A stretch of 29,334 nt of DNA, taken from positions 1 through 29,334 of the forward strand of contig CAXHAT010000091.1 in the NCBI GenBank assembly GCA_964014485.1, written 5' to 3'. Every line of letters starts with the position of its first letter. Within the stretch, counting starts at the first letter, position 1. Made by a program: the position numbers and the translations under genes. The DNA comes from an uncultured Deferribacteres bacterium. GTDB taxonomy: Bacteria; Zhuqueibacterota; Zhuqueibacteria; Zhuqueibacterales; Geothermadaptataceae. Under the pieces are notes generated by a model that made no database searches, had not been told where the DNA came from, and saw nothing but the letters and a program-made list of their open reading frames with translations. Shown piece by piece: positions 1 to 19,846 of the stretch.

Positions 1-620
1 CTATAGACCCAGCCGCTCTGGTCGCCAAAATAAACAAGATCGTCCCAGAGCGCTGCGGCGCGCGTCAGCAAATGGGGCGTTTCCGAAGAATGCGGTGATT
101 TGAATTGCCAGACCGGCTCTCCCGTCTCCAATTTGAGCGAGATCAATTCATCGTCGTCGACCACGGTGAAAATTTGGGCGCCAGAGCGAAGAATCGCCGA
201 CGGAGCGCCGGAGCCGCGGACACGGCGTTTCCAGTTCACCCGCCCCGTTTTTTTCTTGAAAGAATAGATGTGGCCGATTTGCGTATCGGTTCCGATCAGT
301 ACGGCTTGGTCGGTGAGCAGCATTTCGCCGTGAAAGCTGTTTTGGTCGCCGTCTTGTTTGACGTCATAGCTCCAGACTTCGCGCCCGGTTGCTTTATCCA
401 ATGCGTAAAACTTTCCGGCGCAGGAGCCGATGAAAACCAAGTCGCCCGAAACTTCGGGAGTGGAGAAGACTCAGCCTTTCGTATCAAATTGCCACAAAAT
501 CTCGCTTGAGATTGCTGGAGTGGTTTGCACAAAAAGGGATGTAAAAAAAGCGGCGGCAATCAAAAAGTTGCGCTCGAGGCCGCCCTTTCTGGAAGCTCTG
601 AAATGCAACGAATTCATCAT
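1..620 (-). CDS. Secreted PQQ-binding-like (BamB-like) beta-propeller repeat protein, running off the window edge; one in-frame TGA at codon 50 (471-473), candidate selenocysteine or nonsense mutation
   Basis: Manual minus-strand translation from ATG 620: MMNSLHFRASRKGGLERNFLIAAAFFTSLFVQTTPAISSEILWQFDTKG*VFSTPEVSGDLVFIGSCAGKFYALDKATGREVWSYD...IYSFKKKTGRVNWKRR...LISLKLETGEPVWQFKS...LVYFGDQSGWVY. Signal-peptide-like N-terminus and repeated (A/S)xxxxTGxxxW PQQ-repeat motifs. The frame has no other stop down to position 3. Confidence 0.85.
439..473 (-). promoter_or_regulatory. Candidate bacterial SECIS element directly 3' of the in-frame UGA
   Basis: Minus strand reads UGA GUCUUCUCCACU CCCGA-AGUU-UCGGG C GACUU. 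The upper stem CCCGA/UCGGG starts 12 nt after UGA, the loop contains GU, and a lower GAGUC/GACUU pairing is possible. Confidence 0.5.
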
Positions 621-684
621 CGCTCATTTGCTCGAATTAATCCGACTTACAGCTTGCTCTCTGGTTCCCCCATTATGGACGCTC

Positions 685-2466
685 TTAACCGTTGTAAAGC
701 GATTCGAAATTGGTTTTGTATTTTTCAAAAACCACCTTGCGCTTAACCTTCAACGTCGGAGTCAGCTCGCCGCCTTCAATGGAGAAATCCTGCGTAACAA
801 TGCTAAACTTCTTCAGCGTTTCGTATGAGGCTAACTGGCTGTTTTTTGATTTGACCTCACCGTCAATCAAATCGAGAATTTTGGATTCGGAGCACAAAGA
901 TTCCCAATCGTGGTTTGACAAGCCGTTCTCCGCCGCCCAAGGCTCGACTTGCTCGCGATCCAGCGTAATCACGGCTACGAGATATTTCCGCTTGTCGCCA
1001 TAGGTAACGACCTGGCTGATATATCGTGAGGTGGTCATGATTTTCTCGATGCGCTGCGGCGCCACATTTTTGCCGCCAGCCGTAATGATGAGATCCTTTT
1101 TGCGGTCGGTGATTTTGAGAAAGCCGTCTTCGTCTATTTCTCCAATATCGCCGGTGTAGAGCCAGCCTTCCTTGTCAATTGTTTCCGCCGTCGACTCCGG
1201 ATTTTTATAGTACCCCTTCATCACATTTTTGCCGCGAAATAGCACTTCGCCGTCTTCCGCGATTTTCATTTCAATGCCTTCGCCAATCGTCCCCACTGTC
1301 CCGAACTTGAAGTTATCGAGACGATTGACATTTGTAAACGAGGTGTTTTCCGTCATGCCAATACCTTCCAGGATGAGAATGCCGCAGGCGTGGAAAAATT
1401 CGGCGATCTCTTTGTTAAGCGGCGCCGCGCCGGAAATACACCATTCCACGCGCCCGCCAAGCGCTTCCTTGATTTTCGAAAACACCAGTTTGTCCGCCAA
1501 CTTCCGCTTGAACGCCAAGCCGCCGGGAATGGGCTTTTTCTGCTGCTGCAACCGGCTGACCTGGTAGCCAACGCCCAAAGCCCAGTTAAAAATCTTCTCC
1601 TTCAAACCGCCGGCGTCCGCGGCGCCGGAGGTGATTTTGTCGTAGACTTTTTCGTAGATGCGCGGCACGCTGGCAAAATAGTGCGGGCGCGTTTCTTTGA
1701 TGTTTTCAGCGACCTTTTCGAGGCTCTCGGCAAAATTAAGCGTCACGGCTTCTTTCATGCCGGAGTAGACGATAATTCTCGCGAAAACATGGGCCAACGG
1801 CAAAAATAGAATCGTTTCGTAATCATTCTTTACATCCAGGCATTTGGCGGAAGTATTCGAAGTGAAGATTAAATTTTCATGCGTAAGCATGACGCCCTTG
1901 GGAACGCCCGTCGTGCCGGAAGTGTAGACCAGCGAAGCCAAATCTTCCGGCTCGACCGCGTCAACGCGCGCCATAAAATCTTCATCGGATATGTCGCCGC
2001 CTTTTTCCAAAAACGCTTGCCAGCTCAGCACATCGTCAGCGCCGGAAGGCTCGCCGTCGATCATGACGATGTGTTTCAATTTGGGCAGATCGCCGCGCAC
2101 TTGCAGCACTTTGTCGAGCTGTTCCTGATTTTCCACAAAAATCAGCGCCGCGTCGCTGTGGTCGATGATATAAGCGCAATCTTCCGGCAAATTGGACGGG
2201 TAGATGCCCACGATGACCGAGCCAATGCTAACGGTCGCGATATCGCATTGCACCCATTCGAGCCGAGTTTGGCTAACAATATCAACTTTATCGTCCTTCC
2301 CCACGCCCAATGCAATCAAACCTTTCGAGATTTGTTTGCAAGTTTCTTCGTGCTCCGCCCAGGTCACGCCGACCCATTGACCGTCTTTTTTTGAACGATA
2401 AGCGGTTTTGTCGCGATTCGCATCGACGATATGCTTGAAAAAATGATAAATTGATTTCTCGGCCAT
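685..2466 (-). CDS. fadD: Long-chain fatty acid--CoA ligase (AMP-dependent synthetase, FadD/FAA1 type)
   Basis: YTSGTTGVPKG AMP-binding motif, LPLAHVF, EGIGMTE, GWLYTGDIG, ITDRKKDLIITAGGKNVAP and ELTPTLKVKR. GGAG RBS upstream. Confidence 0.93.
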   Translation of the reverse strand: MAEKSIYHFFKHIVDANRDKTAYRSKKDGQWVGVTWAEHEETCKQISKGLIALGVGKDDKVDIVSQTRLEWVQCDIATVSIGSVIVGIYPSNLPEDCAYIIDHSDAALIFVENQEQLDKVLQVRGDLPKLKHIVMIDGEPSGADDVLSWQAFLEKGGDISDEDFMARVDAVEPEDLASLVYTSGTTGVPKGVMLTHENLIFTSNTSAKCLDVKNDYETILFLPLAHVFARIIVYSGMKEAVTLNFAESLEKVAENIKETRPHYFASVPRIYEKVYDKITSGAADAGGLKEKIFNWALGVGYQVSRLQQQKKPIPGGLAFKRKLADKLVFSKIKEALGGRVEWCISGAAPLNKEIAEFFHACGILILEGIGMTENTSFTNVNRLDNFKFGTVGTIGEGIEMKIAEDGEVLFRGKNVMKGYYKNPESTAETIDKEGWLYTGDIGEIDEDGFLKITDRKKDLIITAGGKNVAPQRIEKIMTTSRYISQVVTYGDKRKYLVAVITLDREQVEPWAAENGLSNHDWESLCSESKILDLIDGEVKSKNSQLASYETLKKFSIVTQDFSIEGGELTPTLKVKRKVVFEKYKTNFESLYNG

Positions 2467-3481: not shown

Positions 3482-3960
3482 AGTTTACACAAGAAGATAT
3501 TGAAGCTATTGCCGGCGCATTAGACGCTGAGGTCAAAAAAAGCGGCGATAACTTCCGTCTGACCATTTCGAATGAGGAAGCCGGACGCAAAATTAGTCTG
3601 GAAGTCAATCCCGACGCCCAGCTTGGCGCTGAAAGGGGCAGCCTGGTTCAGGTTTATACTTCCAACGCATTTCTGCAAGTGCAATTCTGCATTGGCTATA
3701 TTTTCAGCCGCATGTCCGGTGAGGTTACTTTTGTTACCCGTCATGCCGGGCGCGTCACCGGGCTTGTCGTAGAAAAAGAAGCGGGTTGCTCGCTCTATGC
3801 GAACATCGACGAAGGCGCCATTTCAGGAAACTACGCCAAAATGAGCTCAGAGGCTTCAATCGCGGCCATCTCGCTTTCTTTCGCGGAACAGTTGCTCGCA
3901 GAGGGCGGCGGCAGCATTGACGCCGACAAGATTCTTGCCGAAGATATGGACGATGACTGA
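3478..3960 (+). CDS. Hypothetical protein
   Basis: 160-aa ORF; its TTG start overlaps the csp stop (TTGA) and it ends 8 nt before xerD. No recognised motif. Confidence 0.75.
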   Translation: MKFTQEDIEAIAGALDAEVKKSGDNFRLTISNEEAGRKISLEVNPDAQLGAERGSLVQVYTSNAFLQVQFCIGYIFSRMSGEVTFVTRHAGRVTGLVVEKEAGCSLYANIDEGAISGNYAKMSSEASIAAISLSFAEQLLAEGGGSIDADKILAEDMDDD

Positions 3961-3968
3961 TTCACTGC

Positions 3969-4880
3969 ATGGATGAGTTCGTCGACGAATTTCTCGACTT
4001 TATTCGCATTGAGCGAAATTTCGCCCGGAACACAATCGAAGCCTACGCGCGCGATCTTGCCAATTACATCACCTTTCTTGATGACCATAACGTCACGACG
4101 CCCAATCAAATCTCTCCCGCTTTAATCCAGGATTTCATTTTTACGCTGAACGAACTAGGGCTTGCGGAAGCGAGCAGCGCGCGTAAACTTTCCGCCGTTA
4201 AGTCATTCCACAAATACCTTCTTGGAGAGCAGTACTCCGAATTCAATCCCGCCGAAACAGTGACGATTAGGCGCAGCGCAACAGAACCTCCCGCCGTGAT
4301 AGAAATTCACGAAATGGAGCATTTGTTATCCTTGCCGGAAACGGATTCGCCGCTTGGATTGCGCGATAAGAGCATGCTGGAATTTATGTACGCGACCGGC
4401 GCGCGCATTTCTGAAGTGCTGAATTTGCATCGCAGCGATTACTTTCCGGAAGAGTATTTCGTCCGATTGTTCGGCAAAGGGCGGAAAGAGCGCCTGGTTC
4501 CCGTCGGCGAGGAAGCTGCGCATTGGATCGAAGAATATCAAACGATGGGGCGGCCATATTTGGCAAAACCGTTCCGCTCCGAAGACGTGCTTTTTCTAAA
4601 TGGTCGCGGCGGAAAGCTCTCGCGCATGGGTGCGTGGAAAATTGTGCGTAAATATGTTGATTCCTCTGGAATTAGAAAGCATATTTCGCCGCATACGTTT
4701 CGGCACTCTTTTGCGACGCACCTGCTGGAAGGCGGCGCAGATTTGCGCGCAGTACAGGAAATGCTTGGGCACGCCGACATCTCCACGACGCAAATTTACA
4801 CACATATTGACCGGGATTATTTGCGAGAAGTCTTACGCCAATTTCACCCGCTCGAGCAGCAACCACGCGCCAGGAAGTAA
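3969..4880 (+). CDS. xerD: Site-specific tyrosine recombinase XerD
   Basis: RNTIEAYARDL, YATGARISE, GKGRKERLVP, SPHTFRHSFATHLLEGGADLRAVQEMLGHADISTTQIYTH. Confidence 0.93.
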   Translation: MDEFVDEFLDFIRIERNFARNTIEAYARDLANYITFLDDHNVTTPNQISPALIQDFIFTLNELGLAEASSARKLSAVKSFHKYLLGEQYSEFNPAETVTIRRSATEPPAVIEIHEMEHLLSLPETDSPLGLRDKSMLEFMYATGARISEVLNLHRSDYFPEEYFVRLFGKGRKERLVPVGEEAAHWIEEYQTMGRPYLAKPFRSEDVLFLNGRGGKLSRMGAWKIVRKYVDSSGIRKHISPHTFRHSFATHLLEGGADLRAVQEMLGHADISTTQIYTHIDRDYLREVLRQFHPLEQQPRARK

Positions 4881-6893: not shown

Positions 6894-7220
6894 TCAGGCG
6901 TCATCGTTTTCACGAATTTGCCGGTCAATATCATCGCGATGGGAGCGAACGTAAGCCCAGGCGTTGGCTAAATCTTCGGCGCGCAGCGTTGGGTAACTCG
7001 CTAACAATTCGGCTTCGCTGCACCCCAAACGTTTTGCTTGTTCCAGCAGCCAAACTGGAATTCGGGTGCGAACAATTCGAGGCTCTCCGCCGCAAATGCC
7101 AAGCGTAGTTTCAATACCTGGAAAAGCATCACCCAAATCTGGAACAACCCATTGCAGCACTTGAGCTTTCTCAGCCCGAGAAAGTGTTGACAACGCCTCT
7201 TTAAATTCCTGTGTACTCAT
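6894..7220 (-). CDS. DUF433-domain antitoxin-like protein
   Basis: GICGGEPRIVRTRIPVW...LLASYPTLRAEDLANAWAY. Confidence 0.88.
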   Translation of the reverse strand: MSTQEFKEALSTLSRAEKAQVLQWVVPDLGDAFPGIETTLGICGGEPRIVRTRIPVWLLEQAKRLGCSEAELLASYPTLRAEDLANAWAYVRSHRDDIDRQIRENDDA

Positions 7221-7272
7221 AAGTTATTCCATGCATTGATTTTCTTGTATCTTCCCGTAGTATCTTTTGAAA

Positions 7273-7301
7273 AATGTAATGAAAATCAGGAATTATGGCA
7301 A
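7273..7301 (-). promoter_or_regulatory. Sigma70-type promoter of the second DUF433 cassette
   Basis: TTGCCA (7301-7296) - 17 nt - TACATT (7278-7273). Confidence 0.55.
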
Positions 7302-7354
7302 TTTAGATTTATTCAGGGTTGGGTTGGCTGATGCAGAAACGATCAGCATTTTGC

Positions 7355-7483
7355 TCAAATCTTCACGATTTTCCCATTCTTACTGCTCTGCAACAACAAA
7401 ACATAAGCGTCTTCGAGAGTCGGTTCGACGGCGCGGGGGGTGATTTCGGGGATTTCGGTTTCGCTGATGAAGCGCATTCGCAC
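7355..7483 (-). repeat. Diverged direct-repeat copy of the last 43 codons of the RND-ABC fusion gene (8230-8358)
   Basis: Ungapped, 114/129 nt identical by manual count. Translates VRMRFISETEIPEITPRAVEPTLEDAYVLLLQSSKNGKIVKI* versus VRMRFISETEVPEIAPRAVEPTLEDAYVLLLQSSKKGSVAKV*. Confidence 0.95.
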
Positions 7484-7549
7484 GCCGCCGGCCATTTTCA
7501 TCTGAGGCAAAACAGTTCCGCCATTATACACAACCCTGATATTCCATTG

Positions 7550-7876
7550 TTATGTTCCTTTAGGAAGCGAAATTTCAAGGAAGGCACCGGGACGGACTGT
7601 TTTGAGCGCTTGATCTATGGCAGGGATAAGTAAAGAAACGACCGTAACTTTGTTACTTGGCAAAATGATCACTGCTAAGCGCCTATTCGATAAGTTTTGC
7701 TGGTACGGAAGGTTTTTGTCGGTCGAAATCAGAATTTCAAATCGATCTTCGACAAGTTTGAGAAGCCGCCCGTTTTTAACGCCCGCCCATCCCATTTCCT
7801 GAACAGTCTTGATGTTCCAATATGGCAAGCGTTTCTTGACAATCCGAGGCGTGCATTCATCCAGCAGGATTTTCAA
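7550..7876 (-). CDS. DUF5615/PIN-like toxin
   Basis: MKILLDECTP...TVQEMGWAGVKNGRLL...ILISTDKNLPYQQNL. TTG start overlaps the upstream TGA (TTGA). Confidence 0.85.
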   Translation of the reverse strand: MKILLDECTPRIVKKRLPYWNIKTVQEMGWAGVKNGRLLKLVEDRFEILISTDKNLPYQQNLSNRRLAVIILPSNKVTVVSLLIPAIDQALKTVRPGAFLEISLPKGT

Positions 7877-8118
7877 TTGACCTGTCCCAAATGCGACAGT
7901 GAAAGCTTGCAAAAATCGAGAACCTGAAGCGCTTGTTCGCGGGTTACGGTTGGAAAATTGTCAAGAAATTCATCCAACGTCAGACCGGCTTCGATATTAT
8001 TGAGCAAAGCGTCCACAGGCACGCGGGTTCCGCGAAAAACGGGAGTCCCGCTTACGATATCCGGATCAACCGTGACAGGGAGTTGCTCCGGCTCGATATT
8101 GTTTAGAACCAAAACCAT
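7873..8118 (-). CDS. DUF433-domain antitoxin
   Basis: DPDIVSGTPVFRGTRVPV...GLTLDEFLDNFPTVTREQA. GGAG RBS 8 nt upstream of ATG 8118. Confidence 0.88.
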   Translation of the reverse strand: MVLVLNNIEPEQLPVTVDPDIVSGTPVFRGTRVPVDALLNNIEAGLTLDEFLDNFPTVTREQALQVLDFCKLSLSHLGQVN

Positions 8119-8179
8119 GATCATCGCTCCAAAGTTGTGAAAGCGGTTTTCAAATTTCGATAACCTGCTGCCAAAACTC

Positions 8180-8208
8180 AAAGTAAAACAAGAATTCCGT
8201 TATGGCAA
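8180..8208 (-). promoter_or_regulatory. Sigma70-type promoter of the first DUF433/DUF5615 cassette
   Basis: TTGCCA (8208-8203) - 17 nt - TACTTT (8185-8180). Confidence 0.55.
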
Positions 8209-8229: not shown

Positions 8230-11200
8230 TCAAACTTTCGCAACGCTCCCTTTCTTACTGCTCTGTAACAACAAAACATAAGCGTCTTCCAGGGTCGGTT
8301 CGACGGCGCGGGGGGCGATTTCGGGGACTTCGGTTTCGCTGATGAAGCGCATCCGTACTTCGTTTTCCACTTTGCTGTGTTGGACGATGTTGAGCTTATG
8401 CCGCCAATTCGGGAAATCCGCTTCCGGCACTTTTGCTTCGAAAACCTTGCCTTGCGCGCGTTTTTGCATTGACTCCGGCGAACCGCGATAGATGACTTGA
8501 CCGCCGTTGAGCACTGCCAGATCGTTGCACGTGCTCGAAATGTCTTCCACCACGTGTGTGCTGAAAATGACGATGCGCTCTTTTGCCAATTCCGCCAGCA
8601 GGTTGCGGAAACGAATGCGTTCGCGCGGGTCGAGACCGGCGGTCGGCTCGTCCACGACGATGATTTGCGGCAAGTTCAGAAGAGTTTGCGCAATGCCGAC
8701 GCGCTGCTTCATGCCGCCGGAGAATGTTTTCACCTTGTCGTCCCGCCGTTCCCACAAACCGACGCTTTCGATGAGTTTATCGATCAATTCGCGCCGCGCA
8801 TCTTCTTCATAAATGCCGTTGATGATCGAATGATAATTCAAATATTCACGCGGGGTCATGTTTTCGTAGAGCCCGAAATCCTGCGGCAGGTAGCCAATCG
8901 CGCCGTGGAACAGTTCTCGGTGCTCGTTTAAATCGCGCCCGTTAATTTTTATGCTGCCGCGATCCGCATCCAGCACGCCGACGATGGAACGCATGAGCGT
9001 CGTTTTTCCCGCGCCATTCGGGCCTAACAAGCCGAACATGCCTTGCCCGATCTCCAAATTAACGCCTTGCAAAGCCGTCACGGTCGGTTTCGGCGGGCGG
9101 ATGAGCGGAATCATCTTGACCAGCGCATAAATGCCGCGCTTGATTTTTTTCAAGCGACCTTCCGGCAATTCCGGGTTGATTTGGCCAGATTCAATGCGGC
9201 GTGACGTTCGTTTCAAAAGCGCAAAAATGATCGTAAAAACCAACATCGTGATCAAAAACGGCACGGACGAAGTTCGGACATAAAGGTATGCCAGCGCCGC
9301 CAAGCCGATCAAAAAACCGCCTCGTCGTACGAAATGAAGCGGATCCACCGTCTCGTCACGACGGTCTCCGTTGTGATCCCGCTTATTCGGGGGAAGCTCC
9401 GCAGCCTGTGGCGCTTGGACGAGGTTCATTTCTTCTGAATTCGCTTCATTGATGGGCTCCGCCTTCTTTTTGCCAAAAAATAAAAACCGTCGTTTTGCGC
9501 GCCGATTTTTCACTTTTGGCTCTGCTTCCGATTTGCGTTTGAAAAACAAAAACCGCCGCTTTTTCTCACGAACTTTTTTAACGCGCGGCTTTGGCGGTTT
9601 GCCGAACATGAAGCGCCAACGGTAGTACAACTCACGTGCGGAAACGACCCAAACGACCGTGCCTATGGTCAGCCAAAAGAGCCAAAATCGACTTTCAAAG
9701 AAGAAATGCAGATAAATAAGCAACGCGCCGATCACCAATGTCCAGATCGTCTCATCCTGCAATTGCCGCTTTGTCCAGGGCAATTGATTTTCGAGATCAA
9801 GCGCGCCAAAACGCCGATCTTGCTTGTGCCACTCGCGCGCGAATCTTTTTGGCGCGCCATAAATTTTGGTAAGGTTTGAAATTCTGATTTGCAGGCTGCC
9901 TTTTAAAACAGCGGCTTTTTCGGCTCGCAGCGTAAAAAACTGTTTCACGCTATACCACAATCCCAGCACAATGAACCAGGTCGGCAGCGTGATAACCGAG
10001 GTCCACAGCCAGCTTTCAAAACGAATATGGAACGAATAAACAAGCCAACCAGAAACTGCCGTGCAGACCGCCAGACCGAGCCAGCCAATTTTCAGCAACC
10101 ATTCGCGCGTCTGCTCCAACGCGACGTAAAGCACGGGGATGAAAACAAGGGTGGAAAACGCCGAAACCGTCAGTCCGCCGAGCACGACAATGGCGAATGG
10201 CGGCCAGAGTTCGAACTCAGTGCCTTGTTTGAAAGCCAGCGGTAAAACACCGAGAATCGTCGTCGCCGAGGTCATCAAAATTGGACGGACGCGGTTTTGA
10301 GAGGCGACCATCACCGCACGCTGCCAGCGGAAGTTACGCCGGTTGCGCAAAATCGCGATGCGGTCGAGCAAAATTATGCCGTTGTTGACGACGATGCCAA
10401 GCAAAACGATAAGACCGAGCAACGCCATCGGCGCGCCTTCGCCGAGAGAAAGCGGCGTGCCGGTGAGCGTAAGCGCGAAAAGTGCGCCGATAATCGCGGT
10501 TGGGATTGTACCCAAAATTACGAACGGGCTGAACAACGATTCAAATTGCGCCGCCAGGAACATGAAGATCAAAATCAAGCCAATGGCGAGCATCCAGTAA
10601 TAGACCGTTTGTGTGTTTTCTTCTTCAATTTTTTCAAGCGTGAATCCGCGCGGCATGCGAATTTCGCTCATCAAAATTTCGATCTGTGTTTCGGCGGTTT
10701 CAACCCGTTGTTTTGACGTTTCCGCTTCCGAAGTAAATCGATAGCTGATTTTGACCTCGCGCGACTGGTTGTAGCGTACGATATTTCCCGGCCCCTCATC
10801 CCGCCGCACTGTTGCAACCTCGCGGATCGGCACGAGCTGCCCGGCGCTATTCATGACCTTCGTGTTTTCCAAATCCTGAACCGTACGTTCTTCTACATCT
10901 CGAAGCTGCATTTGGATATTCGTATCATCGCCGCCGCTATAGAAAGGCGTGGCGGCTTGAGCGCCTTCCGCGCGCGTGCCCCAGATTGCCGTCATGATTT
11001 GCTGCATGCTCAAGCCCCAAATCGCCAAGCGCAGCCTGTCGCCGCGAATTTGAATTTCCGGCGTGCCTTCGCGCAATTCCGAGCGTACGGAGCGCGGATC
11101 GACGTCTTCGATTGTTCGCAAAGTTTGAACGATTTGCGTGCTGAGCGTTCGCAAAACATTCACGTCATGGCCGCGCAGACGGAGCCCTTTTTCCGTGCTG

Positions 11201-13158
11201 AACAATCCCCCGGCATCTCCTCCCCCGCGTCCGCCCCCTCCGCCGCCGCGATTCGGAGGCTCGAACGACAATTCTACGCTGCGGTTTCGTCTTTGAATGT
11301 CATCGATTTTTTCTTTTACGGCTTCAATATTCAGTTGCTGCGTGCGCTTGTCCGGCTCAACAAAATTGACGGCAATGAAAGCTTCCTCAGTTTGCACGCG
11401 CGTACGCGCTTCTTTAATATCCGGGATTTGGTTGATTTCTTCCTCAAATCGGCGGGTAAGTTCGTCCGTGTAATCCAGGGTCGAGCCTTTGGCCATGGTG
11501 AGATAAACGTCAACGCGGTCGGGCGGCGGCGAGGATGATTGTTGCAAAATAAACGTCGCGCCGATCACCAGACTCAAGAGCAAAAAAACGGCTACGAGCG
11601 AGACCGTGCGAATACGGTGGCGCATGCAGGACTTGAGAAACAAACGGTAAATTTCGAGAATACGACCAGCTTCAAACTGCCGAAAAGATTGCGCGCCCAG
11701 AGTCAGGCTTGCAAGCAAGGGCACAATCGTGAGCGCAACAAACAGCGAAGCAAGTAGCGGAAAAATGACGGCGAGGGCCAATTCGCGCACAAACAACTGT
11801 GCGTCGCTTTGTACGAACAGAACTGGCAGGAAAACTAAAATCGTCGTGCCGGTGGAGGCGAAAATTGAGCGGCTGACTTCGACCGTACCGTCGAGCGTCG
11901 CTTCGCGAACTGATTTTCCGCGCTGGTAGTGTGTGAAAATGTTCTCCATCACGACAATGCCGTTATCCACGAGCATGCCGATGGCCAACGCCAGCCCGCA
12001 GAGAGAGACAATGTTGATGGAAAGATTCCATGCGTACATAAAGTTGGCGGTGATGAGCAGGCTGACCGGAATCGCGATCATCAGAATCGTGACGAACCGA
12101 AAATTTTTGAGAAAAAGAAACAACACAATAAGCGCTAGAAACGCGCCGGTCACTGCCAGCGATTTTACCCGATCAATGGCGTCGGAAATGAGCTGCGCTT
12201 GGCTGATGTTAACGACCAATTCCAGATCCTCACGCGCCAATTCTTCGTTGAGTGCGTCGATCTGCTCCTGCGCCGCGTTGGCGACCTTGATCATGTTGCT
12301 CTGGTTGTCTTTCTGGATGAAAATGCCAACGCTCGATTTGCCGTTGATGCGGAAATATTCGGTCTTTTCTTCCTCGCCGTAACCGACTTTGGCTACGTCC
12401 GAGAGACGAATCGGGCCATTCGCATCAACAACCAAATCCGCTAACGTACGAATATCATCAACGCGCCCAATCAGGTTCACGTCGAGAATGCGTCCGGCGG
12501 TGATGACTTGCCCCAAATGTTCCGGCTGGCGATGAAACTGGTTGACAACCTGCTGAACGCGCGTGACGGGAATCCCCATCGCTTCGCACTTGTCTTCATC
12601 AATCTCCACGCCAATGTTTTGCCGCTCGCCGCCGCCGACATTGACGTTCACAATGCCGTCGACTTGTTCCAAGCGCAGCTTCACGCGGCGCTCCGCTATC
12701 TCCCTCAGGTCATTCAAAGGCCGGTCGCCGCGAATGCTAATTTGCATGAGAAATGTGGAAAAATCACTAGTGTCGAAGCGGTTGACGGCGACGCGCGAGT
12801 TCTGCGGCAATTGCGGCTCCAGAGCGGTCATCTTTTGCTGCAATTTCAGGATGGCGAATTTCATATCCACCCCGGGGTCGAAGGAAACCTTGGTGCTGAA
12901 AAAGCCGGGATTGACGGTCGTCTCCAAGTCCTTCACGCCTTCCAACGCCGCCAATTCCGCTTCCACGGGAATCGCCAATTGTCGCTCCACTTCCTCCGGC
13001 GCCGCGCCGTTCATCCCCGCGCTGACAAAAACTTCCGGAAAGATCAACTCCGGCAGCAATTGCACCGCCAGGCGATCCCAGGAAAAATACCCCAACATGC
13101 ACACGCCCGAGGCGAACATGAGCATCGTGACCGGTCTTTTTAGAGCAAGTTTTGTCAT
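8230..13158 (-). CDS. AcrB-family RND permease fused to extra TM helices and a C-terminal ABC ATPase domain
   Basis: Roughly aa 1-1015 form an RND (GMLVDNGIVVMEN, RVRPILMTSATTILGVLPLA, VLGGLTVS). The C-terminus carries GPNGAGKTT, GYLPQ, FSGGMKQR, VVDEPTAGLDP and STH. Single uninterrupted 1642-aa frame. Confidence 0.93.
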   Translation of the reverse strand: MTKLALKRPVTMLMFASGVCMLGYFSWDRLAVQLLPELIFPEVFVSAGMNGAAPEEVERQLAIPVEAELAALEGVKDLETTVNPGFFSTKVSFDPGVDMKFAILKLQQKMTALEPQLPQNSRVAVNRFDTSDFSTFLMQISIRGDRPLNDLREIAERRVKLRLEQVDGIVNVNVGGGERQNIGVEIDEDKCEAMGIPVTRVQQVVNQFHRQPEHLGQVITAGRILDVNLIGRVDDIRTLADLVVDANGPIRLSDVAKVGYGEEEKTEYFRINGKSSVGIFIQKDNQSNMIKVANAAQEQIDALNEELAREDLELVVNISQAQLISDAIDRVKSLAVTGAFLALIVLFLFLKNFRFVTILMIAIPVSLLITANFMYAWNLSINIVSLCGLALAIGMLVDNGIVVMENIFTHYQRGKSVREATLDGTVEVSRSIFASTGTTILVFLPVLFVQSDAQLFVRELALAVIFPLLASLFVALTIVPLLASLTLGAQSFRQFEAGRILEIYRLFLKSCMRHRIRTVSLVAVFLLLSLVIGATFILQQSSSPPPDRVDVYLTMAKGSTLDYTDELTRRFEEEINQIPDIKEARTRVQTEEAFIAVNFVEPDKRTQQLNIEAVKEKIDDIQRRNRSVELSFEPPNRGGGGGGRGGGDAGGLFSTEKGLRLRGHDVNVLRTLSTQIVQTLRTIEDVDPRSVRSELREGTPEIQIRGDRLRLAIWGLSMQQIMTAIWGTRAEGAQAATPFYSGGDDTNIQMQLRDVEERTVQDLENTKVMNSAGQLVPIREVATVRRDEGPGNIVRYNQSREVKISYRFTSEAETSKQRVETAETQIEILMSEIRMPRGFTLEKIEEENTQTVYYWMLAIGLILIFMFLAAQFESLFSPFVILGTIPTAIIGALFALTLTGTPLSLGEGAPMALLGLIVLLGIVVNNGIILLDRIAILRNRRNFRWQRAVMVASQNRVRPILMTSATTILGVLPLAFKQGTEFELWPPFAIVVLGGLTVSAFSTLVFIPVLYVALEQTREWLLKIGWLGLAVCTAVSGWLVYSFHIRFESWLWTSVITLPTWFIVLGLWYSVKQFFTLRAEKAAVLKGSLQIRISNLTKIYGAPKRFAREWHKQDRRFGALDLENQLPWTKRQLQDETIWTLVIGALLIYLHFFFESRFWLFWLTIGTVVWVVSARELYYRWRFMFGKPPKPRVKKVREKKRRFLFFKRKSEAEPKVKNRRAKRRFLFFGKKKAEPINEANSEEMNLVQAPQAAELPPNKRDHNGDRRDETVDPLHFVRRGGFLIGLAALAYLYVRTSSVPFLITMLVFTIIFALLKRTSRRIESGQINPELPEGRLKKIKRGIYALVKMIPLIRPPKPTVTALQGVNLEIGQGMFGLLGPNGAGKTTLMRSIVGVLDADRGSIKINGRDLNEHRELFHGAIGYLPQDFGLYENMTPREYLNYHSIINGIYEEDARRELIDKLIESVGLWERRDDKVKTFSGGMKQRVGIAQTLLNLPQIIVVDEPTAGLDPRERIRFRNLLAELAKERIVIFSTHVVEDISSTCNDLAVLNGGQVIYRGSPESMQKRAQGKVFEAKVPEADFPNWRHKLNIVQHSKVENEVRMRFISETEVPEIAPRAVEPTLEDAYVLLLQSSKKGSVAKV

Positions 13159-14127: not shown

Positions 14128-14307
14128 ATGACAACCAAAGAAAAAATCCAGCAAGAACTCGACGAGCTTCCAGACGAGCTTCTCGAAAAGGTACACCAGT
14201 ATCTCACCGCTCTTAAAAAAAAGCCCGGTAAGCGTAAAAAAATTAAAACTTACAAGTTAGGCGGGCGATTCGACAATCTCGATATTCGCAGACAAGCTTA
14301 TGAATAA
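14128..14307 (+). CDS. Small antitoxin (DUF2281/VapB-like), missed by the ORF track
   Basis: MTTKEKIQQELDELPDELLEKVHQYLTALKKKPGKRKKIKTYKLGGRFDNLDIRRQAYE* (59 aa). AAGGA RBS; overlaps the PIN gene start. Confidence 0.8.
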   Translation: MTTKEKIQQELDELPDELLEKVHQYLTALKKKPGKRKKIKTYKLGGRFDNLDIRRQAYE

Positions 14308-14707
14308 TGTACTCATCGACACAAACGTTCTCGTTTACAGCACCGATGAAGATTCACGCTTCCATGAAGAAGCACAAAACATTCTGTTCGAATCAGATTT
14401 CGAACTCATAACGACAATCAAAAACATTTCAGAATTTCTTGCTGTTGTGACCAAGGGAAAAGCCCCTGCGTTGTCAGTCAATGATGCACTTTCGATTGTA
14501 ACCGAGTTTCAAAACCAGATGATCATTCTCTACCCGGATGCTGATTCTTTCGCTCAATTCCAGCAACTGCTGCGCAAATACAAGCCTAGAGGCTTGAAAG
14601 TTCATGACTTTGAAATTGCGGCGATTGCATTGGCGAACGGGATAGACAAAATTTCGACTTTTAACAAAAAAGACTTCACCAATATTGAAGAGATCATTTT
14701 GGTTTGA
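14300..14707 (+). CDS. vapC: PIN-domain (VapC-family) toxin
   Basis: VLIDTNVLVY...SEFLAVVT...HDFEIAAIALANG...TFNKKDF. Confidence 0.9.
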   Translation: MNNVLIDTNVLVYSTDEDSRFHEEAQNILFESDFELITTIKNISEFLAVVTKGKAPALSVNDALSIVTEFQNQMIILYPDADSFAQFQQLLRKYKPRGLKVHDFEIAAIALANGIDKISTFNKKDFTNIEEIILV

Positions 14708-14806
14708 ATTAAAGCCCGTTTTGTAACAACGGAAACTGTCATCACGAGACGGGAAAAAGCCGTGTTTCACCATCAAACGCTGACCAGATAATTCTTATCC
14801 CCTGAC

Positions 14807-15151
14807 TTAATCTTCTACTATCTCTCCGAGTCGATCAACCAATGCATTCAGGTCATTCTCAACAACTGACCAGACGATTTGATAATCGACGCCAAAATAG
14901 TCGTGTACAAGTCTGTTTCGAAAGCCTCGAATTCTCCTCCATTCGATCTCTGAGTGTTCGATTCTAAAATCAGGATCGATGCGGTTGGCTGCCTCGCCAA
15001 TTATTTCGAAATTTCTGATGACAGCGTCGACAGTTTTATCATCTGCGATAAACGATTCATAATCGAAACCTTCGGTGTAGCGTTGGATCTTCCTGGCTGA
15101 ATCCAGCATATCCCCCAAGAGCAAAAAGTCATCTCTTCTTCTCTCAGACAT
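14807..15151 (-). CDS. HEPN (DUF86/HepT-like) ribonuclease toxin
   Basis: DAVIRNFEIIGEAA and the RX4HXY motif RNRLVHDY. Start overlaps the MNT stop. Confidence 0.92.
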   Translation of the reverse strand: MSERRRDDFLLLGDMLDSARKIQRYTEGFDYESFIADDKTVDAVIRNFEIIGEAANRIDPDFRIEHSEIEWRRIRGFRNRLVHDYFGVDYQIVWSVVENDLNALVDRLGEIVED

Positions 15152-15434
15152 AGACGAGTTCCGGTTCGACGACCTCAAAATACTTGTCTTTTATTCCATT
15201 TCTCGAAACGAGGTCGACTTTCATCCTCATCAGTTCTTCCAACTCATCAGCAAGATCGATAAATCGAATACCGATATTGTCCGAAAATTCGACGAGCAAG
15301 TCCAGATCGCTGTCAGCGTCCTGTTCATCTCGAGCGAATGAGCCAAAAACCGCGAGTGATTTTATTGGATAATTCTTGAAAAGATGTGATTTGTGCCGTT
15401 TAAGCTCGAAGGTAATTTCAGCTAAATTGTTCAT
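15144..15434 (-). CDS. Minimal nucleotidyltransferase (MntA-like) antitoxin
   Basis: FGSFARDEQDADSDLDLLVEF (GSX10DXD) and KVDLV. Confidence 0.92.
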   Translation of the reverse strand: MNNLAEITFELKRHKSHLFKNYPIKSLAVFGSFARDEQDADSDLDLLVEFSDNIGIRFIDLADELEELMRMKVDLVSRNGIKDKYFEVVEPELVYV

Positions 15435-15478
15435 AACTATGACCAAACTAAATTGATTGTTAAAGAAGGATTCGAAAT

Positions 15479-18400
15479 CTATGGATTTCTTCGCAACCGA
15501 TCAATCAAATCATAAACCGTTGGGATGACGATGAGCGTGAGCAGCGTAGAGGTAACGAGTCCGCCGATCACGGCGATGGCCATTGGGGCGCGCAGTCGGG
15601 CGCCTTCGCCGAGGCCGATGGTGAGCGGCAAAAGCGCCAGAATCGTCGTGGCGCTGGTCATCAAAATTGGGCGCAGACGGCGTTTGGCCGCCTGTATGAC
15701 TGCTTCTTTCCGCGCTATGCCTTGCGCACGCAATCGTGTGATGTAATCCACCAAGACTATCGAGTCGTTCGCCGCAATGCCTGCCAGCATGATGACACCG
15801 ATGTAGGCCATGATGCTCAACGGTTCGCCGACAATCAGAAACGCGTAAACAACGCCAACTCCGGCTAACGGCAGCGTGAGCAGAATCGTAAACGGGTGCA
15901 AAAAGCTTTCGAACAATGAAGCGAGCACCATGTAAACGAGAACGATTGAAAGCAACAGGGCGAATTTTAATTGATCGAAAGATTCCTGCCGTTCCGCCTC
16001 TTCGCCGCCAAAACTCACTTCGTAACCGGACGGCAACGGCACTTGCGTCAAGCGAGGTTCAATACTTGAAATGACGCTGCTCAATTTAACGTCTTTGTCG
16101 AGCTGTGCGGTGACGTGGGTAACGCGTGACTGGTTGTGCCGCTGAATTTCTTTCGGGCCTTCATCCTTCTCAAGACGGACCAGATCGCGCAAGCGCAGGA
16201 TTGCGCCGTCAGGAGACGCGATGACGAGATTTTCCAATTCCATCATCGTGGCTTTTGGGAAAGCAACGCGAATATTCCGGTCGTCACCTTCGGTGTAAAA
16301 ACTAGACACAACATTCCCCGCCAAACGGTCGCGAACTTTCGCGCCGATTTGCTCAACGTCCAAGCCAAAACTTGCCGCCAACAAACGATCAACTTTCAAA
16401 TTGATTTCCGGCCTGCCGATTTCAAAACTAGTTTCGATGGTGTTCAAACCATTGATTGGCTCCAACGATTCGGCAATGCGCTCGCTGAGCTGCTGAAGAA
16501 TGGTAAAATCATCACCCTTGATTTCGACGATGACCGGCGGGCCGCCCGTGCCGATCGTGGCTTGCAAGCTCGTCTCACGGATGCGAAAACTCACTTCCAT
16601 GCCCGGCAAATCAAGGCCGGGACGCAAGAGTCGAATCGCATCGGACGGCGGCAGACCTTGCTCGCCGCTGCGCAAGTTAATGGTTACGCGCGCCCGTGAT
16701 TCACTGTTCGAAGCGCTTGAAGTAAACAAATCCTGTGATGAGCTGACATTGACGGTGGCAAATTGGTTTTCAAGTGCTTCGCCGATAATCTGTCCGATTT
16801 GGTACTCGACCTCGGCAAGCACGTCAGAAGATTTTTCCAGAGGCGTGCCCGGCGGCAATGTGAGATCAAGCTGCACCTGGTTTTCCGCGCTGCGGGGTAC
16901 AAATTCATTGCCGACGACAGGCAAAAGAAACGCGGCGGAACCTAGCATCAAAATCGCGGCAATCACCACGGTTTTGGGGTGATTCACCGCCCAGTTGAGA
17001 AATTTGTTGTACACCTGAATGTTCAAATGCTGCTTTTCCAACGCCGTCGTTTTTTTGGCGAATACGCGCGAAGCCAGCGGCGGGATCAGCAAAAAAGCGA
17101 CGAGTAAAGATGACAACAGCGAAAACGCGACGACCCACGCTTGCTCCTTAAAAAGCTCGGCGGCAACGCCTTGAACATAAACGATGGGCAGGAAAACAAT
17201 AATTGTCGTCAACGTGGAAGCGACGATGGCGACGCCGACTTCACTTGTGCCCTTAATGGCCGCTTCTCCAGCTTCTTCGCCGGACTGCCTTCTTCGGAAA
17301 ATGTTTTCGATGACGACAATCGCGTTATCGACCAACATTCCGGCGCCAAGAGCCAAGCCGCCAAGAGTCATCACGTTGAGCGTGTATTCCTGAAAAAACA
17401 TCAGGCTGAAAGTCGCCATGATTGAGATCGGAATCGCGAGGCTGATGATCACTGTGACGCCAATGTTTCGCAGAAAAACGTAAAGTACGAGCACCGCGAG
17501 AATAACTCCAATCACCGCCGTGGTTTTCACTTCACCTATGGCGGAATCGATGAAGTCCGCCTGGTTGTAAATCGTAACGAACTGAACGCCGCCCAACTCA
17601 CTTTCCATACCGCCAACAGCTTCCGCGAGCTGTCCGGCCACGCGAACGGTGTTGTCTTGCGCTTCTTTGTAGACATAGAGCCCGACGCTCTCTCGACCGT
17701 TGAAGCGCACAACCTCGGTGCGTTCTTCCGGCGCATAGCTGATCTTCGACACGTCGCGCAAGTAGATCGGCACTTTTTCCGGCGTGAATTGGCCGCCGGC
17801 CTGTTGCGCGCCAACAGAACTCGTGTCTCCGTTCGTCGCCTTGTCCTGATAGCCGACGACGGTTGATGCAACTTCGTCGATGTCCTGATATTTCCCCACG
17901 CCTTTGATCAGAAAGGAAGTATTGTCTTGCACCAGATTGCCGCCGGAAGCGTCGGCGTTTGATTGTTGGATTTGTGTGTTAATGGTCGCCGGGGTGAGAT
18001 TGAATGCGTTGAGAAGATATTCGTCAAGCTCGACGCGCACTTCCCGTTTGAAGCCGCCGTAGACTTCCACGCGCGCCACGCCGTCGAGGCGTTCCAGGCT
18101 GCGTTTCAAAACGTTTTCAGCGATGCGGCGCATTTCGTCGAGATCACGGTCACGGTCGCTTTGCAGCGCATAAATTGCAATCGGCTCTTCTTGCGGATCA
18201 TAGCGGGCGGTGAGAACGCGGTCAACGTCGGGGTCGGATTCAAAACCGGCGACTTTTTTCTGTACATCGAGCAGGGCAAAATCCATGTCGGCGCCCCAAC
18301 TAAACGTGACCGTTGTCAACACGCGGCCCGGGCTGCAAACGGAGCGGACGTCCACCACGCGGCTCACGGTGCCGAGCTCTCCTTCCAATTGGCGCGCAAA

Positions 18401-18586
18401 ACGCTGCTCCATTTCTTGCGGGGCTCGGTCGCCGGACTGTAATTCGACCACAATGCGCGGGTTGTAAATCGAAGGCAGCAGATCCGTGCCGAGCTTGTCG
18501 AAAGAAATGTACCCGAGAATTGCAATGGCCGCCATAATCATCGCAATAGTAACGGGATATTTGACGGAAAATTTGGGGAGATTCAT
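15479..18586 (-). CDS. AcrB/AcrD/AcrF-family RND permease
   Basis: 1035 aa with GMLVDNAIVVIEN, RRLRPILMTSATTILALLPL and PMAIAVIGGL. Confidence 0.95.
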   Translation of the reverse strand: MNLPKFSVKYPVTIAMIMAAIAILGYISFDKLGTDLLPSIYNPRIVVELQSGDRAPQEMEQRFARQLEGELGTVSRVVDVRSVCSPGRVLTTVTFSWGADMDFALLDVQKKVAGFESDPDVDRVLTARYDPQEEPIAIYALQSDRDRDLDEMRRIAENVLKRSLERLDGVARVEVYGGFKREVRVELDEYLLNAFNLTPATINTQIQQSNADASGGNLVQDNTSFLIKGVGKYQDIDEVASTVVGYQDKATNGDTSSVGAQQAGGQFTPEKVPIYLRDVSKISYAPEERTEVVRFNGRESVGLYVYKEAQDNTVRVAGQLAEAVGGMESELGGVQFVTIYNQADFIDSAIGEVKTTAVIGVILAVLVLYVFLRNIGVTVIISLAIPISIMATFSLMFFQEYTLNVMTLGGLALGAGMLVDNAIVVIENIFRRRQSGEEAGEAAIKGTSEVGVAIVASTLTTIIVFLPIVYVQGVAAELFKEQAWVVAFSLLSSLLVAFLLIPPLASRVFAKKTTALEKQHLNIQVYNKFLNWAVNHPKTVVIAAILMLGSAAFLLPVVGNEFVPRSAENQVQLDLTLPPGTPLEKSSDVLAEVEYQIGQIIGEALENQFATVNVSSSQDLFTSSASNSESRARVTINLRSGEQGLPPSDAIRLLRPGLDLPGMEVSFRIRETSLQATIGTGGPPVIVEIKGDDFTILQQLSERIAESLEPINGLNTIETSFEIGRPEINLKVDRLLAASFGLDVEQIGAKVRDRLAGNVVSSFYTEGDDRNIRVAFPKATMMELENLVIASPDGAILRLRDLVRLEKDEGPKEIQRHNQSRVTHVTAQLDKDVKLSSVISSIEPRLTQVPLPSGYEVSFGGEEAERQESFDQLKFALLLSIVLVYMVLASLFESFLHPFTILLTLPLAGVGVVYAFLIVGEPLSIMAYIGVIMLAGIAANDSIVLVDYITRLRAQGIARKEAVIQAAKRRLRPILMTSATTILALLPLTIGLGEGARLRAPMAIAVIGGLVTSTLLTLIVIPTVYDLIDRLRRNP

Positions 18587-18623
18587 ATGGTCTTGGGTTT
18601 ATTCTCGTGAAATCGGGAAGTCG

Positions 18624-18703
18624 AGTGATCAGTCATAAGTAAATAGTAATTAGTGGGCTATAGACTGATTACTATTTACTAATCACTCATTACTGATCAC
18701 TGT
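18624..18703. repeat. Inverted array of 7-bp repeats forming a long hairpin between the MFP and RND genes
   Basis: + strand: (g)AGTgat cAGTcat aAGTaaa tAGTaat tAGTggg ... ACTgatt ACTattt ACTaatc ACTcatt ACTgatc ACTg. AGTGATCAGT/ACTGATCACT and AGTAAATAGTAAT/ATTACTATTTACT pair perfectly. Confidence 0.85.
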
Positions 18704-19758
18704 CTCGCCACTCTAACTTTCGACTGATCTCGCAGCGTCTCGTGGCCTTTTGTCACCACTTGGTCGCCTTCTTTAATGCCGCCGGAAATCTCCACGTCTT
18801 CCCTAGTCTCGATGCCTGTGCTGACTTCGCGTTCGTGGGCGACGTTGCCTTCGACGACAAAAACCGTCGGGCGGTTGTTGCGCGTCAAAATCGCTTCTTT
18901 GGGGATAACGATGGCCGTGTCGTTGCTCGCCACGACGATGTCCGTTTTGACGAACATGCCCGGACGCAATTTCAAATCTTTGTTTCCAATCTCCACGGTC
19001 ACTTTGAAAGTGCGAGTGCGCTGATCGATGGTCGGATCGATGGCCGTGACAAGACCTTTGAAAATCTCATCTTCGAGCGCATAGTTGCTCACCAACACGG
19101 AATCGCCGACGTCCACGCGGCCAAGGTCCGTGTTCGGCAAATTGACGTCAACAAGGGTTGTCCTGTAGTCCAAAATGTTGCACAACACAAATCCGGTGCG
19201 AACGCGCGTGCCGTCGGCGTTTTTTTGTAAATTGGCGATCATGCCGGAGATAGGCGCTCGAAGATTGAGTTTTTCGGCTTGAATAAGTTTCGATTCATAG
19301 TCCATTCTGGTTCTCAACTCTTCTTGTCGAGCTTGTTCTAATTCTTTCTCTGTAACCCCGCCTTCTTTGAATAATTCTTCCTGTTTATCTAATTCCCGTT
19401 TAGCATTCTCTTTTGCCAACTTGTTGTATTCAACGCGTACCGTGAGCAAGTACTCGGGATTTTCGAGCTTCGCCAATTGATAACCTTTTGTCACTGGGCG
19501 ATTGGTCGAAAGATCTACGCCGTTGGATTTAGCCAGATGCAGCAGTCCGTCTACCTCAGTCACAACTTGCTCTTCTCGGCTGGCGCGCAGGGTGCCGGTC
19601 GTTGAAATATACTCGGCGATGGGGCGGCGATTGACTTTTTCAACAGAGACGGGAAAAGTCAAGTCCGCGGCGCTCTGCTCATTGTTATCGGAGCAACTAG
19701 CCAACAACACGCCGAGCATGAGAATGATGGAAACGCGAATGATTTGTCGTAAGAACAT
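18697..19758 (-). CDS. RND periplasmic adaptor (membrane fusion protein), lipoprotein
   Basis: Lipobox LLASC; LRAPISG, LRPGMFV, IPKEAI and GDQVVTKG. Confidence 0.93.
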   Translation of the reverse strand: MFLRQIIRVSIILMLGVLLASCSDNNEQSAADLTFPVSVEKVNRRPIAEYISTTGTLRASREEQVVTEVDGLLHLAKSNGVDLSTNRPVTKGYQLAKLENPEYLLTVRVEYNKLAKENAKRELDKQEELFKEGGVTEKELEQARQEELRTRMDYESKLIQAEKLNLRAPISGMIANLQKNADGTRVRTGFVLCNILDYRTTLVDVNLPNTDLGRVDVGDSVLVSNYALEDEIFKGLVTAIDPTIDQRTRTFKVTVEIGNKDLKLRPGMFVKTDIVVASNDTAIVIPKEAILTRNNRPTVFVVEGNVAHEREVSTGIETREDVEISGGIKEGDQVVTKGHETLRDQSKVRVARQ

Positions 19759-19846
19759 GACGGGCCTTTTTTTCAGTAAACTCAAATTAAACCAAGTACT
19801 CTATCATCAACCACAGCGGGACACGACTCCCCCAAAAATCAAGTTT

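Follow-up and report, generated by a model that had tools for sequence, protein, structure and literature searches.

The window analysed here comprises positions 1 to 29,334 of contig CAXHAT010000091.1, 29,334 nucleotides (nt) of DNA from an uncultured bacterium of the Zhuqueibacterota, and its first 620 positions carry the 5' part of a PQQ/BamB-type propeller gene with an in-frame TGA. All 19 orthologous copies of the gene that were examined, from 18 genomes and with protein identities of 31 to 100%, have a TGA at this very column. We consider it highly probable that the triplet at 473-471 is decoded as selenocysteine (Sec). The gene thus almost certainly belongs to a widespread selenoprotein family that is missing from recent catalogues and is cut short by gene callers. 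The explanation as a whole, comprising the Sec codon, its decoding driven by a selenocysteine insertion sequence (SECIS) and an exported BamB-like propeller with a redox role, is in our view likely to be correct.

The in-frame TGA and its orthologs

The features of the window on which this explanation draws are the following:

3..620, minus strand: 5' part (206 codons) of the predicted propeller selenoprotein gene, with PQQ/BamB-type repeats; runs off the contig start
507..620, minus strand: signal-peptide-like N-terminus, with a K/R-rich start, the hydrophobic core FLIAAAFFTSLFV and then TTPAISS
471..473, minus strand: in-frame TGA, very probably read as Sec50; a TGA column in all orthologous copies, with Cys there in P0164, P0204, P0274 and P0275
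420..422, minus strand: TGC codon of Cys67, in the GSCxG turn; candidate partner of Sec50
445..458, minus strand: apical hairpin with the stem CCCGA (458-454)/UCGGG (449-445) and the loop AGUU (453-450)
425..476, minus strand: possible lower helix enclosing the UGA, GGCUGA (476-471) pairing with UCGGCU (430-425), in the minimum free energy fold of the window sequence

The open reading frame (ORF) starts with the ATG at 620 and reaches the TGA at codon 50. Past this codon the frame stays open for 156 further codons up to position 3, i.e. the edge of both contig and window. The read-through product (P0001, 206 amino acids) matches the Pfam family PQQ_2 (PF13360) with 72.1 bits against a cut-off of 27.6, which places it in that family, and PF01011 with 33.6 bits. 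Cys67, located 17 codons past the TGA, is the sole Cys among the 206 visible residues. At the N-terminus four K/R residues stand ahead of the hydrophobic core, for which the Kyte-Doolittle hydropathy in a 10-residue window reaches a maximum of 2.16. Similar N-termini are found in 17 of 18 family members, some relatives having a lipobox. Based on this signal peptide, which was judged from composition and hydropathy, the product is probably exported. TGA is also the commonest ordinary stop in the window, where it closes 14 of the 23 long ORFs. An earlier note on this DNA, made from the letters alone, had described a signal peptide, a PQQ-repeat context, an in-frame UGA followed by 156 open codons, a CCCGA-AGUU-UCGGG hairpin 12 nt past the UGA, Cys67 as the only visible Cys, and TGA as a normal stop of other genes; every one of these elements is present, the hairpin at 458-445.

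The missing 3' half of the gene (177 codons, ending in TAA) is located on contig C434 of the same genome at 1818-2351 on the minus strand. Homology is contiguous across the two contigs: C91, the window contig, takes up query residues 37-208, and C434 takes up residues 208-379. The ends of the two contigs share 9-10 nt, ahead of an adapter-like sequence, presumably Nextera, that ends C434. The TGA, which the earlier note had wished to see confirmed in raw reads, is unchanged in assembled contigs of two DNA runs; X1 covers 97-519, X2 covers 415-476, and neither differs from the window at any position. Both runs belong to one marine-metagenome study, their contigs have a depth of ~3x, and X1 may be the source sample. 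X2 covers the TGA by a 62-nt piece with a 122-nt loose end, and a third run, X3, does not reach the TGA. Among RNA data sets, none is recorded as containing window positions 1-1500.

The 19 orthologous copies comprise the window gene, those of G023, G024, G025 (two copies), G027 and G093, and those of 12 other species genomes; four loci from genomes already counted under these handles had been removed before this number was reached. In a six-frame search of 40 relatives, a single in-frame TGA was present in each of the five close homologs found (44-50% identity), and none in any of the weaker PQQ paralogs. A scan in which each GTDB species was represented by one genome revealed 17 gene copies at 16 loci, and a phylum-wide search of 167 genomes added one more carrier, G093. 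The records of the carriers are titled KSB1, Blastocatellia, Pyrinomonadaceae, Bryobacteraceae and Acidobacteriaceae, and the titles Cytophagia and Heliobacteriaceae look mislabelled. TGA is seen directly in 16 of the 17 copies of the species scan; in the remaining one, L053, it sits in the neighbouring frame, ahead of a frameshift. The KSB1 genome G025 harbours two tandem paralogous copies (L052:2619-5119), each with its own TGA and hairpin.

The sequence around the TGA follows the motif [DE]-T-x-G-U, with the Cys 17 residues further on embedded in G-S-C-x-G. Invariant in the 6 closest copies are W41, F43, D44, T45 and G47 before the TGA and V49, P53 and V55 after it. Inspection of codon 50 in homologs, the check that the earlier note had placed first, thus gives TGA in every orthologous copy, rare Cys forms and, among true orthologs, neither Trp nor any other sense codon. 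Of the 16 intact family genes whose stop is visible, 10 end in TGA, and the internal TGA must therefore be read in a context-specific manner.

To the annotation the family appears in shortened form. With the full-length ortholog P0002 as query (C in place of U) we found 489 proteins at E <= 1e-10 among 5.8 billion proteins. All 120 homologs listed begin at or past the residue after Sec, many of them exactly at the next codon, and they span only 75-87% of the query. Gene callers therefore truncate the family, as had been anticipated for the window gene. Among 221 proteins with the family signature (including 6 read-through translations), 176 start past the Sec column yet retain the second Cys, and a further 34 start past both columns. 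In their sources these homologs are named "PQQ-binding-like beta-propeller repeat protein" or "BamB". At least ~200 clusters (at 90% identity) in public databases are thus annotated without the N-terminus, and so without the signal peptide and the most reactive residue; for every one of these clusters, a corrected annotation alters both the predicted location and the predicted function.

Forms with Cys in place of Sec exist and are rare. When 1.84 billion cluster representatives were searched exhaustively and without a profile, four full-length relatives appeared among the best 150 matches. In two of these, P0164 and P0204, Cys occupies the Sec column as well as the second-Cys column; the other two, the divergent P0135 (Ala/Val) and P0166 (Pro/Ser), have lost both, and P0166 is also devoid of His95 and Asp110. 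A search with P0164 revealed only two more Cys forms (P0274 and P0275) among 101 matches, the others mostly covering ~80-85% of the query, like truncated Sec forms, and the weakest being more distant PQQ proteins. With these four proteins, homologs with Cys aligned to Sec, as are looked for when a family is assigned to the selenoproteins, are at hand. Sec forms therefore dominate the family and far outnumber the Cys forms, which suggests that selenium cannot easily be substituted in the reaction concerned. Among 21 non-Sec paralogs, none has Cys at the Sec column and two have it at the second column.

The downstream hairpin and the Sec machinery

The stem of the hairpin starts 12 nt and its loop 17 nt past the UGA. 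The alignment of 17 orthologous sequences is free of gaps, and each of them has TGA and hairpin in the same position. When stem columns 16-20 are matched with 25-29, 90% of the cells are paired, compared to 37.5-60% for slid partners, and compensatory double changes occur in three of the five stem pairs. The covariation test that the earlier note had proposed gives a score of 0.353, compared to 0.153 +/- 0.032 for shuffled alignments, and is reached by none of 500 shuffles. This is further supported by RNAalifold, which predicts the same helix. Pair 3 joins the wobble base of a Pro codon with the wobble base two codons downstream and is seen as C-G, U-A, G-C and U-G; as these are synonymous sites, the pattern is not accounted for by protein coding. 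Coupled amino acid changes, namely (A,A), (T,V), (E,S) and (I,D), maintain pairs 4 and 5.

Every loop contains G-U, in the form of GGUC, AGUU, GUU or GUG, and the stem has 4-7 base pairs (bp) by folds, with 4 bp in L051, L052a and L061. Energies of the hairpin alone range from -5.0 to -13.7 kcal/mol (-7.4 for the 21 nt of the window copy) and those of the 50-nt regions from -9.8 to -20.0 kcal/mol, so that by the energy criterion for a bacterial SECIS (bSECIS) the bare hairpin is borderline. The constraint given in the main text of PMC13188914 places the loop 16-37 nt from the UGA, and the propeller-gene hairpin agrees with the constraints given there in its distance of 17 nt and its small loop with G-U. 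Below the apical hairpin, a lower helix enclosing the UGA is possible. It pairs in 95.8% of the cells across 16 distinct sequences, with one-sided changes only and no double changes, and covariation speaks neither for nor against it.

The host genome (8.4 Mb, 97% complete) contains the complete set of Sec genes for which the earlier note had proposed to look. A tRNA-Sec was found by ARAGORN and scores 68.8 bits with Rfam RF01852, and SelB (332 bits), SelA (567 bits) and SelD (377 bits) all lie above their curated cut-offs. The host selD (contig C68, locus L015) is itself a selenoprotein gene with an in-frame TGA, reading TCG-U-AAKVSP. Its layout of TGA, 12 nt, a 5-bp stem AGCCC/GGGCT and a GGTC loop is the same design as that of the propeller gene, and we regard selD as the decisive internal control for the hairpin. 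In the whole genome a hairpin of this type at 11-13 nt follows ~85 of 307,532 TGA triplets (~3 in 10,000), which is about the random expectation by our own estimate. Eight of the matches lie in open frames and, judged by their translated flanks, only selD and the propeller gene look like proteins. Since TGA and hairpin recur at the same place in the 17 aligned sequences, the arrangement in the propeller gene is more than chance. The compact SECIS shared with selD (12-nt spacer, 5-bp stem, NGUN loop) should be usable as a descriptor in the search for more selenoproteins in these lineages.

Taken together, we propose that the small stem-loop within the coding sequence, with its 5-bp stem 12 nt past the UGA and its NGUN loop, would recruit SelB with Sec-tRNA(Sec) by the ordinary bacterial mechanism. 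The product would be exported and fold as an eight-bladed BamB-like propeller, in which Sec may attack the substrate and Cys may resolve the intermediate as a selenenylsulfide.

Predicted fold and gene neighbourhood

We modelled the ortholog P0002 with AlphaFold2 on an 18-sequence alignment; in its numbering, Sec48 and Cys65 correspond to Sec50 and Cys67 of the window gene. The model (predicted local distance difference test, pLDDT, 90.8; predicted template modelling score, pTM, 0.86) is an eight-bladed beta-propeller, which assigns the protein to this fold. Residues 1-32 are mostly of low confidence, with pLDDT below 50 at 1-3 and 10-32. Residues 37-44 upstream of Sec form a strand of the fold with a pLDDT of ~97 and the conserved sequence WxF[DE]TxG, and this strand appears to close the propeller ring in the model. 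As the strand belongs to the fold, a product starting past the TGA would lack both this strand and the signal peptide. Sec48 is located in the loop entering strand A, the innermost strand, of blade 1, and Cys65 in the B-C turn (SCAG) of the same blade. In a Foldseek search BamB comes first, with template modelling (TM) scores of ~0.7-0.84 and a root-mean-square deviation of ~3 A for crystal and cryo-EM chains.

Conservation of residues in non-structural positions was counted across 217 family sequences:

C65: 183 of the 185 sequences covering the column; absent from P0135 and P0166, which have also lost the residue at the Sec/Cys column
Y83: 212 of 217
D84: 216 of 217
D88: 210 of 217
H95: 216 of 217
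D110: 216 of 217
K130: 201 of 217
R354: 206 of 216

In standard propeller topology the D-A loops and the B-C turns lie on one face. Based on this rule and the strand order in the model, Sec48, His95 and Arg354 would be placed around the channel mouth, where the A strands of blades 1, 2 and 8 begin, and Cys65 and Asp110 in adjacent B-C turns on the same top face as Sec48. A shared face is what the earlier note had suggested for Sec50 and Cys67. Sec and Cys may be close in space in the modelled fold.

Immediately upstream of the propeller gene the window contains the following gene:

685..2466, minus strand: AMP-binding acyl-CoA synthetase-like gene on the same strand, separated by a 64-nt gap; a context that is not conserved elsewhere

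The neighbourhood of the propeller gene differs between lineages. At L054:2628-3845 (titled Blastocatellia) and L058:1788-2918 (mislabelled) a reaction-centre-type cytochrome c gene lies ~60 nt upstream on the same strand, and a 646-residue WD40 protein is encoded downstream. In three Pyrinomonadaceae genomes, a gene for a UbiE/COQ5-type S-adenosylmethionine-dependent methyltransferase ends just before the propeller gene (L055:429-1292, L056:3110-3955 and L057:3129-3992). In L056 and L057 this gene is preceded by a small gene, with a LysR regulator divergent, and a THAP4-like heme-binding domain was detected in L057 only (E 1.8e-6). A cation-efflux gene, an ArsR-family regulator and a glyoxalase-family protein are encoded within a few kb, the last two near the propeller gene of L056. 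At L048:271-3342 (Acidobacteriota) genes for a SrpI-type (type 2A) encapsulin and a SelD-like AIRS protein are found upstream, and the called ORF of the latter is devoid of its N-terminus, perhaps through a Sec codon of its own. An acyltransferase adjoins the propeller gene at some other loci. Some family members carry a C-terminal DUF6624 after the propeller and one has HEAT repeats (L050:4364-5656; P0014, P0018, P0023, P0035 and P0045).

The remainder of the window encodes several further systems. At 8233-13158 on the minus strand, a 1642-codon ORF encodes a full AcrB/RND transporter domain (residues 1-1014) and, towards the C-terminus, an ABC ATPase domain (1363-1507), which is either an unusual fusion or the result of a missed stop or frameshift. 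The tripartite efflux operon at 15482-21349 (minus strand) consists of genes for a second RND pump, a membrane-fusion protein of the HlyD type and an outer-membrane efflux protein. Toxin-antitoxin-like modules are located at 6897-8181 and 14300-15446 and comprise two DUF433 genes, a PIN-domain gene and a HepT-like RNase/MNT nucleotidyltransferase pair. A BlaI/MecI-type repressor gene followed by one for a BlaR1-type M56 peptidase sensor is found at 25886-27969 (plus strand), and a 1113-residue protein encoded at 21394-24732 (minus strand) has a C-terminal Golvesin_C domain as its only Pfam match.

Competing explanations and known systems

The TGA could be a genuine stop if the gene were a pseudogene, if it contained a sequencing error, or if a 49-codon leader peptide preceded a separate downstream propeller. 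Every gene caller does annotate the downstream part alone, the window copy is cut by the contig end, and the contig depth at the TGA is only ~3x. Such a stop would, however, have been kept at one and the same column in all copies, in genomes mostly titled KSB1 or Acidobacteriota and down to the lowest identity, behind a conserved and confidently modelled strand. Moreover, a downstream-only product has no signal peptide, the codon after the TGA is not a start in several copies (ATA or ATC), and the Cys homologs read straight through. We regard the genuine stop as close to refuted, and it is the least credible of the alternatives. Read-through of the UGA by a near-cognate Trp, Cys or Arg tRNA, or by lineage-specific recoding, is very improbable. 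It gains from the fact that the presence of selenium is a prediction from sequence, and a hairpin could in principle promote other kinds of read-through. The complete Sec machinery, the hairpin design common with the host selD, the fit to the bSECIS constraints in the main text of PMC13188914, the use of TGA as the commonest ordinary stop, and the presence in homologs of Cys, which usually takes the place of Sec, at this position all speak for Sec instead.

Beside the reliance on sequence, several observations weigh against the proposed explanation. L053 (~3950-4020) and L060 (~4180-4270) are frameshifted shortly after GSCxG with the TGA kept, and these may be pseudogenes or decaying copies, or assembly errors. 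Of 10 other carrier genomes tested, 7 gave a SelB match, as did 36 of 41 relatives with or without the propeller gene; being near-universal in the clade, SelB does not discriminate. The hairpin is short, and the window copy folded alone is unremarkable (z = -1.46). Non-Sec paralogs pair in 53 of 105 cells at the equivalent site through the P-x-V-x-G coding pattern, and part of the stem therefore comes free. The KSB1 copies L046 and L047 use a shifted register with a 6-bp stem and a 3-nt loop and were scored as partly unpaired, and an Rfam scan of window positions 300-620 at E <= 10 gave no match. Finally, no neighbour is shared across lineages among 87 neighbouring ORFs scanned in 12 loci. As there is no conserved partner to hint at the function, it must be read from the protein itself.

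For the function of the presumed selenoprotein, we give an extracytoplasmic Sec/Cys redox enzyme about even chances, its catalytic role and substrate being putative; a metal or metalloid site carries a clearly smaller share, and other roles account for the rest. In the second case, which we consider rather unlikely and in which Sec decoding would still be real, Sec, Cys, His95 and Asp110 would bind Cu, Zn, Hg, As, Se or Te in a periplasmic binding, chaperone or detoxification protein. The conserved cluster does mix soft and hard ligands, and several of the selenoproteins in Table 1 of PMC13188914 bind metal. The order of genes in the three Pyrinomonadaceae loci, where the propeller gene comes right after the methyltransferase and the THAP4-like protein (the domain being detected in L057 only), and the nearby ArsR regulator, glyoxalase-family protein and cation-efflux gene point in the same direction. 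Against this, only one His is invariant (H116 is below 90%), and the methyltransferase context is limited to one family of genomes, the neighbours elsewhere being cytochrome c, acyltransferase or acyl-CoA synthetase genes. The protein could also be a non-catalytic BamB-like scaffold, with the Sec-Cys link serving only to hold blade 1 together in an oxidising compartment. We consider this improbable even though BamB is the closest solved fold and some relatives share its lipobox. A purely structural Sec bond is rare if it occurs at all (general knowledge; section 7 of the main text of PMC13188914), and the BamB equivalog model gives only 62-122 bits against a cut-off of 285. In addition, the polar residues H95, D110, D84, D88, K130 and R354 are conserved, and Sec48, His95 and Arg354 at the modelled channel mouth resemble an active site.

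The redox reading can be carried further, although in this form it is tentative and on balance doubtful. The family might represent the first beta-propeller selenoenzyme, exported and mostly in Sec forms, with a Sec/Cys/His/Asp/Arg centre on the top face round the hub and a chemistry new to selenoproteins. Polysulfide, thiosulfate, tetrathionate, selenium compounds or metalloids would be candidate substrates, and the enzyme would occur commonly in Acidobacteriota and KSB1 of soils and sediments, unseen by current annotation.

The earlier note knew of no characterised Sec-containing BamB/PQQ-like propeller, and the catalogues and papers searched bear this out. No PQQ, BamB or propeller domain is listed among the 119 prokaryotic selenoprotein families in the main-text Table 1 of a May 2026 review (PMC13188914; supplements apart). 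A propeller selenoprotein is likewise absent from deep-Sep (PMC12013277, text and four supplements) and from the text and species list of the BSepDB paper (PMC13326102), the 111-family list of which could in principle include the family. The corresponding terms do not occur in a 2022 review, a 2016 ISME paper and the GOS paper, in the last of which BamB was not looked up (PMC9312934, PMC5029168 and PMC2398784). Full-text literature searches found no propeller selenoprotein, and NCBIfam has no model specific to the family. Like many of the 119 catalogued families (Table 1 of PMC13188914; BSepDB), the propeller family has a single Sec with a nearby Cys and was found by comparative genomics. It differs from them in that the partner Cys lies 16-17 residues away across a beta-hairpin, with no UxxC or CxxU motif. 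According to the main text of PMC13188914, most characterised selenoproteins are thioredoxin-like in fold or have Sec at Mo, W or Ni centres; the present protein is a propeller and not thioredoxin-like. A propeller with Sec at its hub would be a new fold for selenium and a target for studies of new extracytoplasmic selenium chemistry in soil phyla that are abundant and poorly cultured.

As in E. coli fdhF and the host selD, a stem-loop follows directly on the 3' side of the in-frame UGA, and its small apical loop contains G and U. The fdhF loop reportedly reads GGUC. The propeller gene differs from these two in the encoded protein, a beta-propeller, in its 5-bp stem at the short end, and in the window loop, which is AGUU and not GGUC. 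With BamB (YfgL) it shares the eight-bladed PQQ-repeat propeller of ~350 residues, the best structural match and, in some relatives, the lipobox. Identity to BamB is, however, only 17-20%, and the scores of 62-122 bits with TIGR03300 (cut-off 285.2) and 54-91 bits with NF008351 (cut-off 423) place the family outside the BamB equivalogs. We know of no Sec/Cys pair or comparable polar hub cluster in BamB. PQQ-dependent alcohol and glucose dehydrogenases have the same repeat type (PF01011) and a periplasmic location, and methanol dehydrogenase is said to carry a redox-active vicinal disulfide on its top face. Compared to these enzymes the propeller protein has about half the size, scores 47-74 bits with TIGR03075 against a cut-off of 480, i.e. 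falls outside that subfamily, and shows nothing that suggests a PQQ pocket.

Tetrathionate hydrolase of Acidithiobacillus ferrooxidans is reportedly an extracytoplasmic enzyme that acts on sulfur compounds. Like the propeller family, it is a cofactor-less eight-bladed PQQ-like propeller (PDB 6L8A and 7CQY), found by Foldseek at ranks 34 and 36 with a query-normalised TM-score (TMq) of 0.74. It is devoid of Sec, its catalytic Asp, D325, is named in the PDB title, and at 17% identity the likeness is structural only. Nevertheless, tetrathionate hydrolase shows that this fold can host chalcogen chemistry.

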